From a virus: a stretch of DNA of 64,000 bases. Below, piece after piece: positions 16,047 to 31,904 of this stretch. The position numbers were made by a program, and so were the translations under genes. Where the stretch lies: IMG/VR virus record IMGVR_UViG_3300032285_001316, positions 29,152-93,151 of that record. The stretch is one strand, 5' to 3'. The notes under the pieces are model-generated. The model had not been told where the DNA came from, did no database searches, and saw only the letters and a list, made by a program, of their open reading frames with translations. Numbering within the stretch: the first letter of the stretch is position 1; every line of letters starts with the position of its first letter.

Positions 16047-16430
16047 TTACGCAGCCCCTTGATAGAACCGCGTAATGTCTCCCACACGTCGTGCACGCGC
16101 GACATCTGCATCCTCCTCTTTCTTAGTAAGGACCTTCTTACGTTTCTCCATGGCACGGATGTGCTCTGGGATTATTGACTTGTCTCGTTCCATGATTCGG
16201 CGCTCATATTGTGTTGCGCCTCCCCAAATACCAAACTCCTCTTCGTTGGTAAGTGCGTAGTCTAAACACTGTTGCAGGATGTCACAGCGAGCACACACGT
16301 CGATTGCTTTAAGCATCTTGTGTGTCTTCTCACTTCCAGCACTAAACACTTCAGGAAAGAATATGTCTGGGTCAGTGTTTTGACAGTTAGCCTCATCGGC
16401 ATTGGGTACGTAGTTGATGAGGTTGAACAT
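16047..16430 (-). CDS. whiB: WhiB-family transcription factor
   Basis: ANC...DPDIFFPE...CARC....C...GIWGGATQYER. Confidence 0.92.
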   Translation of the reverse strand: MFNLINYVPNADEANCQNTDPDIFFPEVFSAGSEKTHKMLKAIDVCARCDILQQCLDYALTNEEEFGIWGGATQYERRIMERDKSIIPEHIRAMEKRKKVLTKKEEDADVARARRVGDITRFYQGAA

Positions 16431-17829: not shown

Positions 17830-19779
17830 CTACACGCCAGCGTTGATTAGGTTGCGCTTGATGCCAAGGTTGACGATGCCACGACCAAGTGCGAACAGGT
17901 CATTGGTATCAGTGATGTGTACGGCTACCTCGCATCCGTGAGTATCTACGGGAGTATCATCATTGTGATACGTTTCTCGTGGGTCAGATACAAAGGCTAG
18001 TGCGGTAAGCACACCAGCACGACGGAACTCTTTGAGTAGCTTGTCACTTGCTTCGCTGTCACTCCATACACCATCAGTGATAGTGATACAGAGCTTGATA
18101 GCACGCTTAGACTCAGCAAGAACATTCTTGGCATACTTGAGCGTTTGTAGTGGCTCAGTACCACCACGACACCAAGACATGCGTACGTTAGTACTTACTC
18201 GCTCCTCAGAGGAGTAAAGGACAAACGGACGGTGGTCATAGGCAAGGACTGTAGTACTTGCGTTAGCACGATCAAGGGCACGCTTCATAGCCCACATGGA
18301 CTCGAACGCTCCCTTGGCCATACCCTGCATAGACCCAGAGATATCTAGCAGGATGACTGCCTCGATGTCTACGGCATCCTCACGCCCGATATCCCACTCA
18401 TCGAAGCACTCGTCAAGGTCAGTGCCTGTAACGTAGCGTTGGATGTTGAGACGCCCGTGCTCAGTACGGCGTAGCCAACCTGGGTCAAACTCTGCTCGCA
18501 ATCGCTCTAACTCGGTAGCAAAGGACTTGGAAGCCTGTGCTATTTCCTTAGGAACAACCTCGTCAAAGGTATCGAGACGTGATGGCTTGCCAGCATTGGT
18601 AGACGTAAGCTCAGCGTCTGCGTTGTACTGCTTGATTGTCTGGGCAATCTCACGCGCCTTAGACTGCTTGACCGTGTTGATGATGTCCTTGGCAATATCT
18701 GACAGGGACTTGTCACCAGTAGCAGAGCCACTGCCCATGGAGTCAGGCGTACCATCTTGAGCGCCCTCGTTGCCGTTGGTATCTGCGGATGTTGCGTTAT
18801 CCTGCTCGATAGCATCAGCCACACGTTCGCTAACCTTCTGCTGTTCTGCCTTGGACATGGGCTTAGACTTGGAAGCCTTCCACTCACCAGTAGCACGGTG
18901 GTCATGACCTGATGGGTCACTTACACGCTTCCACCCACTGTTGTTGTTCCAACTGTTGTTGTTCCAGTAGTCCGTAGACGTGCTAGGCAACTGGGTGATT
19001 AGTGCGTCGTACTTTTGGATAATGTCTAGCGCAACTGCGTAGTTCTTAGGGTCAGCAAGGTTGAGCACAATGTACTGGTCAATCAAGCTACCAATTTCCT
19101 GTACGTGCTGAGGCTGTTCGTACAAGTCAGCTACCTGCTTACGCAATTCCTTAGGCAAGTACTTGCGCCCATGGAGTAAAGGAAACGCTACATTCCATTG
19201 CTCAGGCTCATCCATGATGAACTTAGCGACTGCCGCCTTGAGCCAGTCAGCTACATTACCGAAACGCTTAGTCATATACATCTCGATACGCTGGTCTTCT
19301 AGAGCATTGAACGCCCGCCATAGACCCTGCTTCTGTACATCCTTGGCAAGGTTGCTACCAGCACGTGGGGTAAGGAGGATGTGGGCAATCTCGTGAAGGC
19401 TAAGCCCCTTGATGTTGAGCACGGTGTCGGGGCTGGTGAGATCCTGTAACGAGTTCTCGTGAAACCAGATGTTATCGGAGTCTGACCATGCGGGAGCGTC
19501 AGGCGTGCCCTGAGCCATCTTGCCCCCCATGTCTACACGGATGGGGCGCAAGGTAAGAGTGCTAGCGAACTTAGACACAACTTGTAGCATACGTACACGT
19601 CTAGCAGTGTCGGGGTCTAGCAGGTCGGTGTTGTAGAACTTAGGCGTGGAAATGTTTGTGTTGGTAGCATCCTCGCCTACTTGGATGTTGTCGATAGCGT
19701 CTACCATGTTCTGCACGTGCTTGTCCTTGGAGGACTGTATCGCAGACAGGATTGACTGTAGTGCGTCATCAGGGTTCAT
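17830..19779 (-). CDS. vWA-domain protein with N-terminal HExxH metallopeptidase-like domain
   Basis: HEIAH, NALEDQRIE, MIDAS DISGSM...GGT...ITDG. Confidence 0.85.
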   Translation of the reverse strand: MNPDDALQSILSAIQSSKDKHVQNMVDAIDNIQVGEDATNTNISTPKFYNTDLLDPDTARRVRMLQVVSKFASTLTLRPIRVDMGGKMAQGTPDAPAWSDSDNIWFHENSLQDLTSPDTVLNIKGLSLHEIAHILLTPRAGSNLAKDVQKQGLWRAFNALEDQRIEMYMTKRFGNVADWLKAAVAKFIMDEPEQWNVAFPLLHGRKYLPKELRKQVADLYEQPQHVQEIGSLIDQYIVLNLADPKNYAVALDIIQKYDALITQLPSTSTDYWNNNSWNNNSGWKRVSDPSGHDHRATGEWKASKSKPMSKAEQQKVSERVADAIEQDNATSADTNGNEGAQDGTPDSMGSGSATGDKSLSDIAKDIINTVKQSKAREIAQTIKQYNADAELTSTNAGKPSRLDTFDEVVPKEIAQASKSFATELERLRAEFDPGWLRRTEHGRLNIQRYVTGTDLDECFDEWDIGREDAVDIEAVILLDISGSMQGMAKGAFESMWAMKRALDRANASTTVLAYDHRPFVLYSSEERVSTNVRMSWCRGGTEPLQTLKYAKNVLAESKRAIKLCITITDGVWSDSEASDKLLKEFRRAGVLTALAFVSDPRETYHNDDTPVDTHGCEVAVHITDTNDLFALGRGIVNLGIKRNLINAGV

Positions 19780-19826: not shown

Positions 19827-21248
19827 TTAGTTAGTGGAGTACTTACCGATGCTAACGCCAAGCTCGTTGGCGATAGTAGGCGCTTCAGCATCAAAGCGCA
19901 TCTTGATAGCGTCACGCTCACCGTCCATCTTGGGGTAGTTGGACAGGAGAGAGTTGACCGCGAACTCAAAGTTCAGGCTCGTAGCATGAGACACAAAGTT
20001 CTTGAGGATACGAGTGGACATTGGTACAGAGAACTCATCGTTCATCTCGGATGCTTCACGGATATTGCTAGCAAATCCTAGGAGCGTGAAGGATGGGATG
20101 AAGTTACTCTCGATGTTGGTATCGTAGGTGAACTCCAACTTAGTACCGAAGCGGTCAATCAGCGCGGCATCTTGACGGCTAGTACCTGTGTACCCAATGC
20201 CTGTGTTCTGGTCGGCAATGAATAGCACGTCGGGGTGTACCTTGATGACCTCATTGAGTGGGTCGATACGCAACTCGCGCTCTTCCAAGAGGCTAAGGAA
20301 CAACGGAGCAGCCTTAGGAGTCATACGCGTCAACTCGTTGATGAGGATAACACTAGGCTGTTGGATTGCCGTAGCCAGTTGGCTGTACTTCCAGCGGGTA
20401 GTGTTACCTACGCCTGTCGGTACGAACCTACCCTGTGTAACTGTCTGGTCAATCTGCTGGGTACATTCGATGGTTACGAATGGCAAGCCCTTGATTGCCG
20501 CGTAGTTACGGGCACTCGATGTCTTACCTGTACCAGCATCACCAGTAAGCAAGACATTGTCTTGCTTGCTACGTGCGTTGTCGTATATCTGCTCCTCAGT
20601 AAGTCCAAAGAACTTACGTGTGAAGTAGGGCTTGACATCTGGCACGGTAAGCACTGCGCCATTCTCTGCGGTGCTGGCAACGATTGTGCTGTAATCCATG
20701 TCTGGCTCACTTTCTGTTGTCGGAGGCAATCCCACGGTGGGAAGCTCGTAGATAGGCTCACTCAAAGGTTGCGAAGCAACCCCCGCGTAAGCGGGCTCTA
20801 GTACTACTGGCTGTTCTACGGGAACAGGAACAACCTGAATGCTAGGGCTTACTACCACTGGGGTAGCAACAAGATACTTAGCAAGTACTGCTGGGTTAGC
20901 GATCGCGGCATCCATCACTTCGTCATAGACTTCGTGGAATGGGCGACCACTTACCGTATCCATATCCTTTACTGTGCGTACAAGCTTCTGTACTAGCACG
21001 GTAGGGGTGATTGGGAACTGAAGCATCTGGTAATCGGCTGGGGTAAGGGCTACTGACATAGGCACGCCTACGCTATCACCTACGAAGCTCAGCACATCTC
21101 CACCAGATAGCTCTCGCCAAGCACCTGCCGTACCCCTAAGCCCCTTACCATCACGGGTGAACCTACGGATATTGCCGTCTTGTAGAGGCACAATAACTAC
21201 CTGCTGAATACCTGTTGGGGTATCTTGCTGAAGGATAGTCGCGAACAT
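19827..21248 (-). CDS. MoxR/CbbQ-type AAA+ ATPase
   Basis: GDAGTGKT Walker A, ILINE Walker B variant, DAALIDRF, STR sensor. Confidence 0.85.
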   Translation of the reverse strand: MFATILQQDTPTGIQQVVIVPLQDGNIRRFTRDGKGLRGTAGAWRELSGGDVLSFVGDSVGVPMSVALTPADYQMLQFPITPTVLVQKLVRTVKDMDTVSGRPFHEVYDEVMDAAIANPAVLAKYLVATPVVVSPSIQVVPVPVEQPVVLEPAYAGVASQPLSEPIYELPTVGLPPTTESEPDMDYSTIVASTAENGAVLTVPDVKPYFTRKFFGLTEEQIYDNARSKQDNVLLTGDAGTGKTSSARNYAAIKGLPFVTIECTQQIDQTVTQGRFVPTGVGNTTRWKYSQLATAIQQPSVILINELTRMTPKAAPLFLSLLEERELRIDPLNEVIKVHPDVLFIADQNTGIGYTGTSRQDAALIDRFGTKLEFTYDTNIESNFIPSFTLLGFASNIREASEMNDEFSVPMSTRILKNFVSHATSLNFEFAVNSLLSNYPKMDGERDAIKMRFDAEAPTIANELGVSIGKYSTN

Positions 21249-21535
21249 TACTTATCTCCTTTGTTGTTTAGAACAATGCGCTTGTATTGGACATTGTCTG
21301 TGTGGTTGTTTACGTACTCGCTATCAAACTCGATGCGACTACTGGGTAGGTCATTGTCTAACAACCTATCCTCTAAGTACCTGACTAGGTCAAGCACTGC
21401 GTAGGGGTCATTACTTGTGTCGAAGTACAGGGCATCTAGTACCGTGTACAACTCTCGTGCCGTAAACACTACGTCTACGGTTGTGCTGTCGATGGGGTCT
21501 AGAGTCTCTACAACCTCATCATCTATCTCTAACAT
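21248..21535 (-). CDS. Acidic hypothetical protein directly downstream of the hammerhead
   Basis: AAAAGGAG RBS. Confidence 0.6.
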   Translation of the reverse strand: MLEIDDEVVETLDPIDSTTVDVVFTARELYTVLDALYFDTSNDPYAVLDLVRYLEDRLLDNDLPSSRIEFDSEYVNNHTDNVQYKRIVLNNKGDK

Positions 21536-21547
21536 GGGCTCTCCTTT

Positions 21548-21616
21548 TGACTCATCAGGCTAGGCTCTTACCTAGCGACGTGTAGCCCCCACACACAAGG
21601 GCTACACGTTTCGTCA
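21548..21616 (-). ncRNA. Hammerhead ribozyme, type II
   Basis: Minus strand: UGAC-GAAAC-GUGUAGCCC(loop)GGGCUACAC-GUC^-GCUAGG(UAAGAG)CCUAGC-CUGAUGA-GUCA. Complete core and three stems; predicted cut between 21577 and 21576. Confidence 0.93.
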
Positions 21617-21631
21617 TCTCCGAAGAGGGGC

Positions 21632-21799
21632 TCAGATAATCTCTGTGCGTGTCTCGCAGTAATCTACGCAACTAGGGCAGTCAGGGTCACCACAAGGGCA
21701 AGGCTCACCGTCTAGGTATGCGTACATCTTTGCGAGTGCTTCATCCTCACTGTCTGCTGTGACAGTGTAGGACTCTCCTGTGAGGATTGTGTACTCCAT
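21632..21799 (-). CDS. 55-aa Cys-rich protein MEYTILTGESY...CPCGDPDCPSC (not in ORF track)
   Basis: AAGGAG RBS; coupled. Confidence 0.55.
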   Translation of the reverse strand: MEYTILTGESYTVTADSEDEALAKMYAYLDGEPCPCGDPDCPSCVDYCETRTEII

Positions 21800-22832: not shown

Positions 22833-23174
22833 TTAGTTCTTGTGTGTGATTAGTGTTAGTACTTCTTCGAGCTTAGAGTCGGATAGACCTAGGTCATCTC
22901 CCTCATCATCTACGCCCCCAACTAGGATGGCGTCGCCCATGATGATGTCTGTCGCCCCAAAGCGCGTTCTAAAGAGCAACGTCGCTAAGAGGTTGAGAGG
23001 TAAGCCGTCGAGCTTTCCCTCTTCGTTGACGTACATAGTGAGGTCATCATCTAGGCTAACGGCTTCGATGTATCCTCCTACGGCGTCGCTAATGACTCTG
23101 TATGAGCCCTCAGGTGCGTCTAGGTCGACTGTCTGTATGCTCTTAGAGGCTCTGACAATAAGTGCTTTGCGCAT
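22833..23174 (-). CDS. DUF3846-domain protein
   Basis: VGGYIEAV...VNEEGKL.GLP.N..AT...I.GD. Confidence 0.85.
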   Translation of the reverse strand: MRKALIVRASKSIQTVDLDAPEGSYRVISDAVGGYIEAVSLDDDLTMYVNEEGKLDGLPLNLLATLLFRTRFGATDIIMGDAILVGGVDDEGDDLGLSDSKLEEVLTLITHKN

Positions 23175-23434: not shown

Positions 23435-23750
23435 CTTGCTTTGCTCCTTTACTCTAGGGCTACCCTAAGGACGCCCAAGCTTGTGGGGGTTCTAGGGGGC
23501 GAGAGCCCCCTAAGTCTCTTTCGAGAGGCTTTGTGTGTTATCTAGAGAGATAAAGACTTATAGAGAGAGACACACATACGTCTATACACGCTCTCCCTAT
23601 AAGCCCTCACCTGTTACATATGACATACCCTAAGAGAGTTTCTCTATCGTGGGGATTCTGTCTTATGCCTGACTTATGTACATACCATGCCTAAGAGTGA
23701 CTCTCACCCTTGTTAGCCTATGGCGATGTGCTTCCTAAGCCTAGAAACAC

Positions 23751-23780
23751 AAAAAGCCCTACAGGCTTACCTGTAAGGCT
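23751..23780 (-). terminator. Intrinsic terminator
   Basis: Minus strand AGCCTTACAGG-TAAG-CCTGTAGGGCT-TTTT. Confidence 0.75.
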
Positions 23781-23876
23781 CTCTCTGATGCTAGTACCTG
23801 ATACGAGTAAGGGGGGCTAGTCTGCGACCTGGCGGTACACTCGCTTAGCCCCCCTCTCTCTTAGAGCAGTAGCCTA

Positions 23877-31827: not shown

Positions 31828-31904
31828 GCCCCCTTAACTCAGTTGGTCAGAGTGCGATACTTGTAATATCGAAGTCAGGCGTTCGAACCGCCTAGGGGGC
31901 CCCA
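31828..31904 (+). tRNA. tRNA-Thr(UGU) with encoded CCA
   Basis: GCCCCCT/AGGGGGC acceptor stem, D arm, CGATA-CTTGTAA-TATCG anticodon arm, TTCGAAC T loop. Confidence 0.93.

Follow-up and report, generated by a model that had tools for sequence, protein, structure and literature searches.

Between two minus-strand reading frames of a phage genome lies a spacer of 96 nt, and the question that it raises is whether this short stretch encodes an active ribozyme that severs the message passing through it. The window analysed herein, which is 64,000 nt in length, comprises bases 29152-93151 of a 93,151-bp IMG/VR viral record that has direct terminal repeats and is rated complete. The original prediction, made from the letters of this window, found a full type II hammerhead in the spacer, on its minus (coding) strand, and proposed that its self-cleavage splits a polycistronic transcript immediately ahead of a ribosome-binding site.

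Reading of the minus strand confirms that positions 21616..21548 constitute a genuine type II hammerhead by motif, fold, conservation and placement (Table 1). Its elements run in the order UGAC-GAAA-stem III-GUC-stem I-CUGAUGA-GUCA, which is that of the type II permutation, with loops closing stems I and III, and both the 5′ and 3′ ends sitting in stem II. The invariant hammerhead positions are all present, namely C3 U4 G5 A6 N7 G8 A9, G12 A13 A14, the A15.1:U16.1 pair and H17, with A15.1:U16.1 being the first pair of stem III (A21609:U21578). Every core base, as well as the three helices in type II order, was thus found where it had been predicted, and the coordinates, the limits of stems I–III and the cleavage position, which sets the 5′ end of the downstream product at 21576, are likewise all correct. 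Within the 10-nt loop of stem III, the minimum free energy (MFE) structure adds 2 further pairs, giving this helix a total of 11–13 bp. The element fills the spacer between the upstream stop codon (21634..21632) and the Shine–Dalgarno (SD) sequence and ATG of the next gene, with 15 nt separating the upstream TGA from the ribozyme, and 12 nt separating the end of the ribozyme from the ATG. Directly 3′ of the GUCA of stem II is AAAGGAGAGCCC, which is followed by the ATG at 21535, such that the ribozyme does indeed abut the ribosome-binding site of the 95-aa gene. A leader of approximately 40 nt had been expected after cleavage; its predicted length is 41 nt, the first 18 nt of which form the stem I hairpin.

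Table 1. Positions of the ribozyme elements, and of the genes and other features considered alongside them, within the 64,000-nt window
Feature	Position	Strand	Detail or basis
5′ flank	21617..21631	(-)	contains CUCUUC 21627..21622
Stem II, 5′ strand UGAC	21616..21613	(-)	helix left open, the mark of the type II permutation
Core G12 A13 A14	21612..21610	(-)	sequence
Stem III hairpin	21609..21578	(-)	21609..21599 pairs 21588..21578; 11 bp, 10-nt loop
C17, last base of GUC	21577	(-)	predicted cut 3′ of this base (21577/21576)
Stem I hairpin GCUAGG/CCUAGC	21576..21559	(-)	21576..21571 pairs 21564..21559
Loop I UAAGAG, 6 nt	21570..21565	(-)	sequence
Core CUGAUGA (C3 U4 G5 A6 U7 G8 A9)	21558..21552	(-)	sequence
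Stem II, 3′ strand GUCA	21551..21548	(-)	sequence
Shine–Dalgarno AAGGAG	21546..21541	(-)	5 nt ahead of ATG at 21535
Upstream 55-aa ORF	21632..21799	(-)	TGA 21634..21632; weak PHROG matches alone, coding status insecure
95-aa ORF, first gene after the ribozyme	21248..21535	(-)	real gene; 7 database homologues, 59-77% identity (53-75% when aligned)
AAA_5 (MoxR/CobS-like) ATPase	19827..21248	(-)	PF07728 5.3e-21; phrog_249 1.7e-30
649-aa protein, putative vWA	17830..19779	(-)	VWA_2 E = 0.0058, 17.7 bits, under Pfam cut-off
DUF3846 protein	22833..23174	(-)	Pfam 2e-21; among small ORFs upstream of the ribozyme
Gene-free gap	23435..23750		roughly 300 nt, downstream of the terminator-like hairpin
Terminator-like hairpin	23784..23751	(-)	strong; 15 pairs then T-run; ~2.1 kb upstream of the ribozyme
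WhiB-like transcription regulator	16047..16430	(-)	phrog_472 1.6e-20; points to actinobacterial host
tRNA gene, single	31828..31901	(+)	Rfam tRNA 60.5 bits

Structural prediction for the 96-nt spacer returns the three-way junction itself as the MFE structure (-41.3 kcal/mol, z = -4.49), a stability that is matched by 0 of 200 shuffled sequences. When both strands of the window are scanned with a type II descriptor, this site is the only one recovered. With the window shuffled 300 times (first-order Markov), the same descriptor returns 0.03 hits per shuffled window when the stem thresholds are loose, and none in any of the 300 when the observed stem lengths are required. Chance fails to account for the motif.

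Recognition of the site by the Rfam type II model, which had been put forward as a check on the prediction, did not follow, as the element falls under the gathering threshold of RF02276 (37 bits) and is not matched. At gathering scores no Rfam hammerhead family matches the site, nor does any within the 361 nt around it at E-values up to 10; on 101 nt, the best match from the clan is a truncated Hammerhead_3 (12.6 bits, E = 3). RF02276 does recognise canonical type II copies in other contigs (L007, L021, L012 and L014; 34–46 bits). A covariance model (R2), for which the training set was 28 other type II hammerheads from outside the lineage of the window, scores the element at 68.6 bits (E about 4e-20), its sole significant match in the window, the training rows having been gathered with our own patterns and aligned with a model built from the window's lineage (R1). 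Several of the R2 training sequences are RF02276-positive, and the two homologues described below score 66 and 63 bits. Given the R2 score, together with the RF02276 matches to canonical copies, the Rfam miss reflects a limit of that model and not of the motif; its use as evidence against the motif was dropped once R2 had scored the site. With regard to copy number, R1 recovers the element only once when run over the complete 93-kb genome, and the genome to which the closest homologue belongs likewise yields a single copy. The clustering illustrated by Perreault 2011 (Fig. 3), where neighbouring ribozymes flank one gene or a short block of genes, is not seen here, the present genome having a single copy.

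To assess conservation, viral contigs were scanned by pattern and on the basis of protein sequence, and metagenome and genome contigs by pattern. Using the AAA protein encoded downstream as a query, four related viral contigs were retrieved, of which the closest alone (L003, 64 % identity) harbours the ribozyme, at L003:1915-1983; a further homologue, L018:1067-1134, was returned by the metagenome pattern scan. These two are the only true homologues from the searches, making for a lineage of three members with the window included. All three display the same arrangement, in which a stop codon is followed by 7–17 nt, the ribozyme, 11–18 nt with an SD, and an ATG. Between them there is no difference in the core or in stems I and II, whereas stem III shows two compensatory pairs (G:C to A:U, and U:A to G:C) plus one C:G to U:G change, and 62 of 62 pair cells across the three members are paired. 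Covariation in related phages, which had been put forward as a further check, is accordingly present in stem III in the form of the two compensatory pairs, and is absent from stems I and II, which are invariant; confined in this way, it is equalled by 46 of 500 shuffles. In a wider family alignment of 38 rows, which was itself fitted to the model, 19 of the 21 pairs covary, a level that none of 500 shuffles reaches. The ribozyme is 94 % and 77 % identical in nucleotide sequence to its two homologues, whilst for the 95-aa gene the corresponding values are 70 % and 61 %, and the adjacent 60-nt flanks are approximately 50–57 % identical among the three phages. Judged on these identities, the ribozyme is better conserved than the flanking genes, and the conserved island coincides with it.

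Outside of this lineage, the locus of L005 possesses the AAA gene and no ribozyme, and a scan with R1 of the genomes behind L002 and L004, and of phages Cantare (Brevibacterium) and Hanem (Gordonia), yields no hammerhead. Since these more distant carriers of the AAA gene lack the ribozyme, the element is lineage-specific and dispensable for the AAA module. The genome of L004 contains, at L028:1501-1552 (-), which is equivalent to G003:C1:83403-83454, a long hairpin and a CCUAGG/CCUAGG hairpin ahead of a ribosome-binding site and ATG. This partial R1 match resembles stems III and I, and was rejected as a hammerhead because it is without GAAA, GUC and CUGAUGA; judging by its sequence, it may be the remnant of a hammerhead, or else two hairpins that have no relation to one and occupy a comparable position.

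Consideration of the gene neighbourhood reveals that the ribozyme delimits, on the 5′ side, a gene module that has been conserved, (81 aa)-(122 aa)-95 aa-AAA_5-vWA-like, and that the genes upstream of it differ among the three phages, wholly so in L003. For the 95-aa protein, no family was found in Pfam or PHROG. The original prediction had this gene leading into an AAA–vWA pair, of which the AAA_5 assignment is upheld and the vWA match is weak, falling under the cut-off; the 649-aa partner gene is also kept beside the ATPase gene in L022. Upstream, along with the small ORFs that include a DUF3846 protein, there is a terminator-like hairpin on the same strand, and no other such hairpin occurs on the minus strand from there to the ribozyme, which suggests that the ribozyme lies some 2 kb into a transcription unit. 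The gene-free gap that adjoins this hairpin may hold the promoter of that unit. A sigma-70 promoter scan gives 7 sites, as against 10.5 expected.

The position of the element directly ahead of a gene start is shared by most hammerheads of its kind. A comparison set of 34 type II hammerheads was gathered by core and stem patterns, and not by context, and 31 of these have an SD and the start of an ORF (≥40 aa) within 9–64 nt on their 3′ side (median 23); the three exceptions are located near contig ends or ahead of short ORFs. In every collected case the ribozyme is on the same strand as the genes, and the 12-nt spacing to the ATG in the window is among the shortest of the set. On the 5′ side of the element, the CUCUUC motif has three possible pairings, these being a CUC-UUCG-GAG mini-hairpin (21627..21618), the SD GGAGAG and loop I, none of which is backed by comparison among the homologues. 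A mini-hairpin abutting stem II is formed by CUC-UUCG-GAG in the window and by UCUC-CUAA-GAGA in L018, and is missing from L003; in both cases where it occurs, its 3′ half (GGAGA or GAGA, respectively) is SD-like.

The tertiary contact that would support rapid cleavage is a further consideration. In type II hammerheads the described pseudoknot joins loop I to the 3′ tail, at the nucleotides that directly follow stem II (Perreault 2011, PMC3088659), and it confers fast cleavage at physiological Mg2+ (PMC3088659), whilst around 60 % of natural hammerheads have no pseudoknot and rely on other contacts (PMC3088659). Amongst the 34 collected, 18 have a long loop I that pairs with the 3′ tail over 4–6 bp, at an offset of 0–1. 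In the window, no loop I/3′-tail pseudoknot of at least 4 bp can be drawn, as the tail is purine-rich (AAAGGAG) and no more than 2 nt of it are complementary to UAAGAG; with this canonical pseudoknot missing, the rate of cleavage in vivo is uncertain. The element instead belongs to the 16 members without a 3′-tail pseudoknot, and these have features in common. Thus, loop I is ≤7 nt in 16 of 16, compared with 4 of 18 in the pseudoknot class, its first base is U in 13 of 16 compared with 4 of 18, and an A is found immediately 5′ of stem II in 13 of 16 compared with 3 of 18 (Fisher p = 4e-4), all of these counts being drawn from phylogenetically non-independent copies collected with our own patterns. 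From these sequence features, it is probable that the subgroup uses a classical loop-type contact, in which the first U of loop I would meet the unpaired A residues next to stem II at its open end.

With the motif, fold, conservation, strand and placement of the element established by observation, we infer, by way of established hammerhead chemistry and of what is generally known of mRNA decay in bacteria, its transcription, its cleavage and the resulting effects on stability and translation. The three-way junction would fold whilst the spacer is being transcribed, and the RNA would then cleave itself after C17. The upstream product would terminate in a 2′,3′-cyclic phosphate one nucleotide past the G+C-rich stem III hairpin of 11–13 bp, and the downstream product would start at G21576 with a 5′-OH lying flush in the stem I hairpin. 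This hairpin would be succeeded by 23 unpaired nucleotides bearing the SD and start codon for the 95-aa gene, with the AAA_5 and vWA-like genes behind; the predicted mean P(unpaired) of the leader is 0.51 in the window precursor and 0.74 in the 3′ product, in which the SD is for the most part unpaired. 3′ exonucleases would act poorly on a cyclic phosphate that lies just beyond a long hairpin rich in G+C, as would 5′-end-dependent RNase E or J on a 5′-OH flush in a hairpin. Both products being capped by hairpins, their decay, and translation of the downstream part, would be independent of the upstream part of the transcript. We consider it likely, within the terms of this model, that an active type II hammerhead between the stop codon and the ribosome-binding site cuts the polycistronic phage mRNA into two hairpin-capped pieces that decay and are translated independently. 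Such uncoupling is a standing hypothesis of the literature and is no new inference; a transcript-processing role for phage hammerheads was stated as a hypothesis in 2011 (PMC3088659), and was still called unproven in the literature of 2019.

Several other readings of the same element bear comparison with this one. Cleavage could serve to unmask the ribosome-binding site, in that CUCUUC would pair with the SD GGAGAG (21544..21539) so as to extend stem II, until cleavage allowed the 5′ fragment to leave and set the SD free; translation of the downstream module would then need the ribozyme. The MFE structure of the window does contain this CUCUUC/GGAGAG pairing, with the SD bases at P(unpaired) 0.04–0.17 in the precursor, and the version in L003 is stronger, consisting of ACCUCU/AGAGGU plus UCUUU/AAAGA, with a mean leader accessibility that rises from 0.26 to 0.71. 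However, the 5′ flank is no more complementary to the 3′ tail than shuffled flanks are (p = 0.41, 0.77 and 0.53 for the three homologues), and the MFE structure of L018 has a local hairpin in place of the SD pairing and does not form stem II. Moreover, CUCUUC in the window is able to form a stable hairpin with a UUCG tetraloop, and this hairpin would be the first to arise during transcription; after cleavage, 4 + 6 bp would still hold the fragments together. As a model, this is an unlikely one. The same flank was also central to the pseudoknot of the original prediction, where CUCUU, placed directly 5′ of stem II, was to pair with AAGAG of loop I as an activating tertiary contact. The complement does exist (21627..21623), although it lies 6 nt away from stem II and not next to it. 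It is a perfect 5-bp match, for which shuffled flanks give p = 0.07, and 4-bp matches can be drawn in L018 (CAUC/GAUG, p = 0.77) and L003 (UUUG/UAAA, p = 0.88); these latter are at chance level, the distance from the 5′-flank partner to stem II varies (6, 10 and 1 nt in the three phages), and in type II hammerheads it is with the 3′ tail that the pseudoknot has been documented. As no consistent 5′-flank partner of loop I is found across the pseudoknot-less hammerheads compared either, this contact is very unlikely, and the pseudoknot as originally drawn is not upheld.

The element might also be conserved and yet be a slow or inactive cutter, its hairpins being retained as barriers to RNases and exonucleases, or as a U-tract-independent pause site or terminator before the ribosome-binding site. 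The missing canonical pseudoknot would fit with this, as would the hairpin pair at L028:1501-1552 (-), which occupies such a slot without a catalytic core. Against it, the core bases are identical in three phages in spite of flanks that are only about 50–57 % identical, which would be unexpected if the hairpins alone mattered, and the roughly 60 % of natural hammerheads that lack a pseudoknot make use of other contacts (PMC3088659); an idle ribozyme of this kind is quite improbable. Finally, one may ask if this is an RNA element at all, or if it is a chance resemblance or a DNA-level element, such as a recombination or protein-binding site. The location at a synteny breakpoint among the three phages, within a region rich in CTAG palindromes, two of which fall within stem I, would be in keeping with the latter. 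Nevertheless, the shuffled windows (0.03 hits at loose and 0 at strict settings) and the R2 score of 68.6 bits speak against chance, whilst the compensatory changes keep RNA pairing intact and the strand agrees with that of the genes in every case, leaving these explanations scarcely credible. The splitting of the message by an active hammerhead thus continues to be the preferred reading.

In comparison to described systems, the element is closest to the type II hammerheads of RF02276 (PMC3088659), whose core and permutation are the same, which likewise lie between genes of phage operons, and for which the cutting of long phage transcripts has also been proposed as a role. It differs from them in having no loop I/3′-tail pseudoknot, a short loop I of 6 nt and an unusually long stem III (11–13 bp), in being single-copy, and in falling below every Rfam hammerhead threshold. 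In haloviruses HF1/HF2, an early helicase gene is preceded, at a distance of 13 nt, by a hammerhead, and the 5′ end of a transcript has been mapped there to no more than three nucleotides from where cleavage occurs (PMC3088659). The closeness to the start codon is much the same in both instances (13 nt there and 12 nt here); unlike the present element, whose core is the consensus and which is known from sequence, that of HF1/HF2 is a core-variant ribozyme (HHphage) in an archaeal virus. In Desulfovibrio vulgaris, type II hammerheads near hypothetical or phage-like genes cleave in vivo, with both fragments having been captured by cyPhyRNA-seq, and they also cleave during in vitro transcription (PMC8782182). 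These too are type II elements with phage-like neighbours, but are from a different host and lineage to those of the window.

The proposed mode of action also has an engineered counterpart, to which there is no evolutionary relation: the window ribozyme would work in the manner of RiboJ. Insulators of the RiboJ type are engineered from a satellite-RNA hammerhead of another permutation, with the hammerhead plus a hairpin set before a ribosome-binding site. Self-cleavage of RiboJ removes the upstream context, and leaves a leader that starts with a defined hairpin ahead of the SD. It is possible, if doubtful, that phage type II hammerheads comprise two designs, one of them being an undescribed pseudoknot-less class defined by a short (≤7 nt), U-first loop I, by unpaired A residues to either side of stem II at its open end and, in most members, by an SD 9–18 nt away, with a U/A contact taking the place of the pseudoknot. 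Were this to be the case, the ribozymes of both designs would be joined to the SD of the next gene and act as natural RiboJ-like insulators, providing a defined, hairpin-capped leader for each cassette.

As for its wider significance, type II hammerheads in phage operons, including those directly before start codons, were described in 2011 (PMC3088659). The present element is real but ordinary, given that phage elements of this kind have been known since that time. What it adds is a well-supported natural hammerhead that Rfam misses, and annotation pipelines based on Rfam thresholds will miss the pseudoknot-less subgroup. It additionally offers a convenient test case for the splitting of mRNA, in which a lone ribozyme occupies a defined place after a stop codon and ahead of an SD, and the genes downstream form a conserved module.

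Other hammerheads came to light during the searches. Contigs L012, L013, L030 and L031 were set aside as members of the lineage, because the stem I that they share with the window had been imposed by the search pattern. Type II hammerheads are nonetheless present at L030:3821-3879 (-) and L031:7341-7404 (-), in contigs that are binned as Dehalococcoidia MAGs, with stem I GCUAGG/CCUAGC and U-first, A-rich loops; their stems II and III differ from those of the window, and each is positioned 9–20 nt ahead of an SD and ATG. One contig of 66.7 kb among these MAG contigs may be a phage that was binned into the MAG. Hammerhead arrays are present in L007, L008, L012 and L013. That of L007 (IMGVR_UViG_3300025889_000748; L007:3609-8565) holds around a dozen type II hammerheads over 5 kb on one strand, and the same array is found in L011. 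Most of its members possess a loop I/3′-tail pseudoknot of 4–6 bp, and behind each ribozyme there is a small ORF, preceded by a ribosome-binding site GAAGGAGGAC that is nearly the same throughout, making this a textbook case of clustering.

With respect to the source genome, neither blastn of the ribozyme region nor tblastn with the 95-aa protein gives a match in cultured phages. The phage itself is uncultivated, approximately 93 kb in size, and probably an actinobacteriophage, an assignment made from two weak sequence pointers, these being the WhiB-like regulator encoded in the same minus-strand block and the nearest cultured relatives of the AAA protein, which are about 30 % identical and occur in roughly 90-kb phages of Brevibacterium and Gordonia. 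The window also bears, on its opposite strand, a single tRNA gene, which is its sole Rfam match at gathering score.
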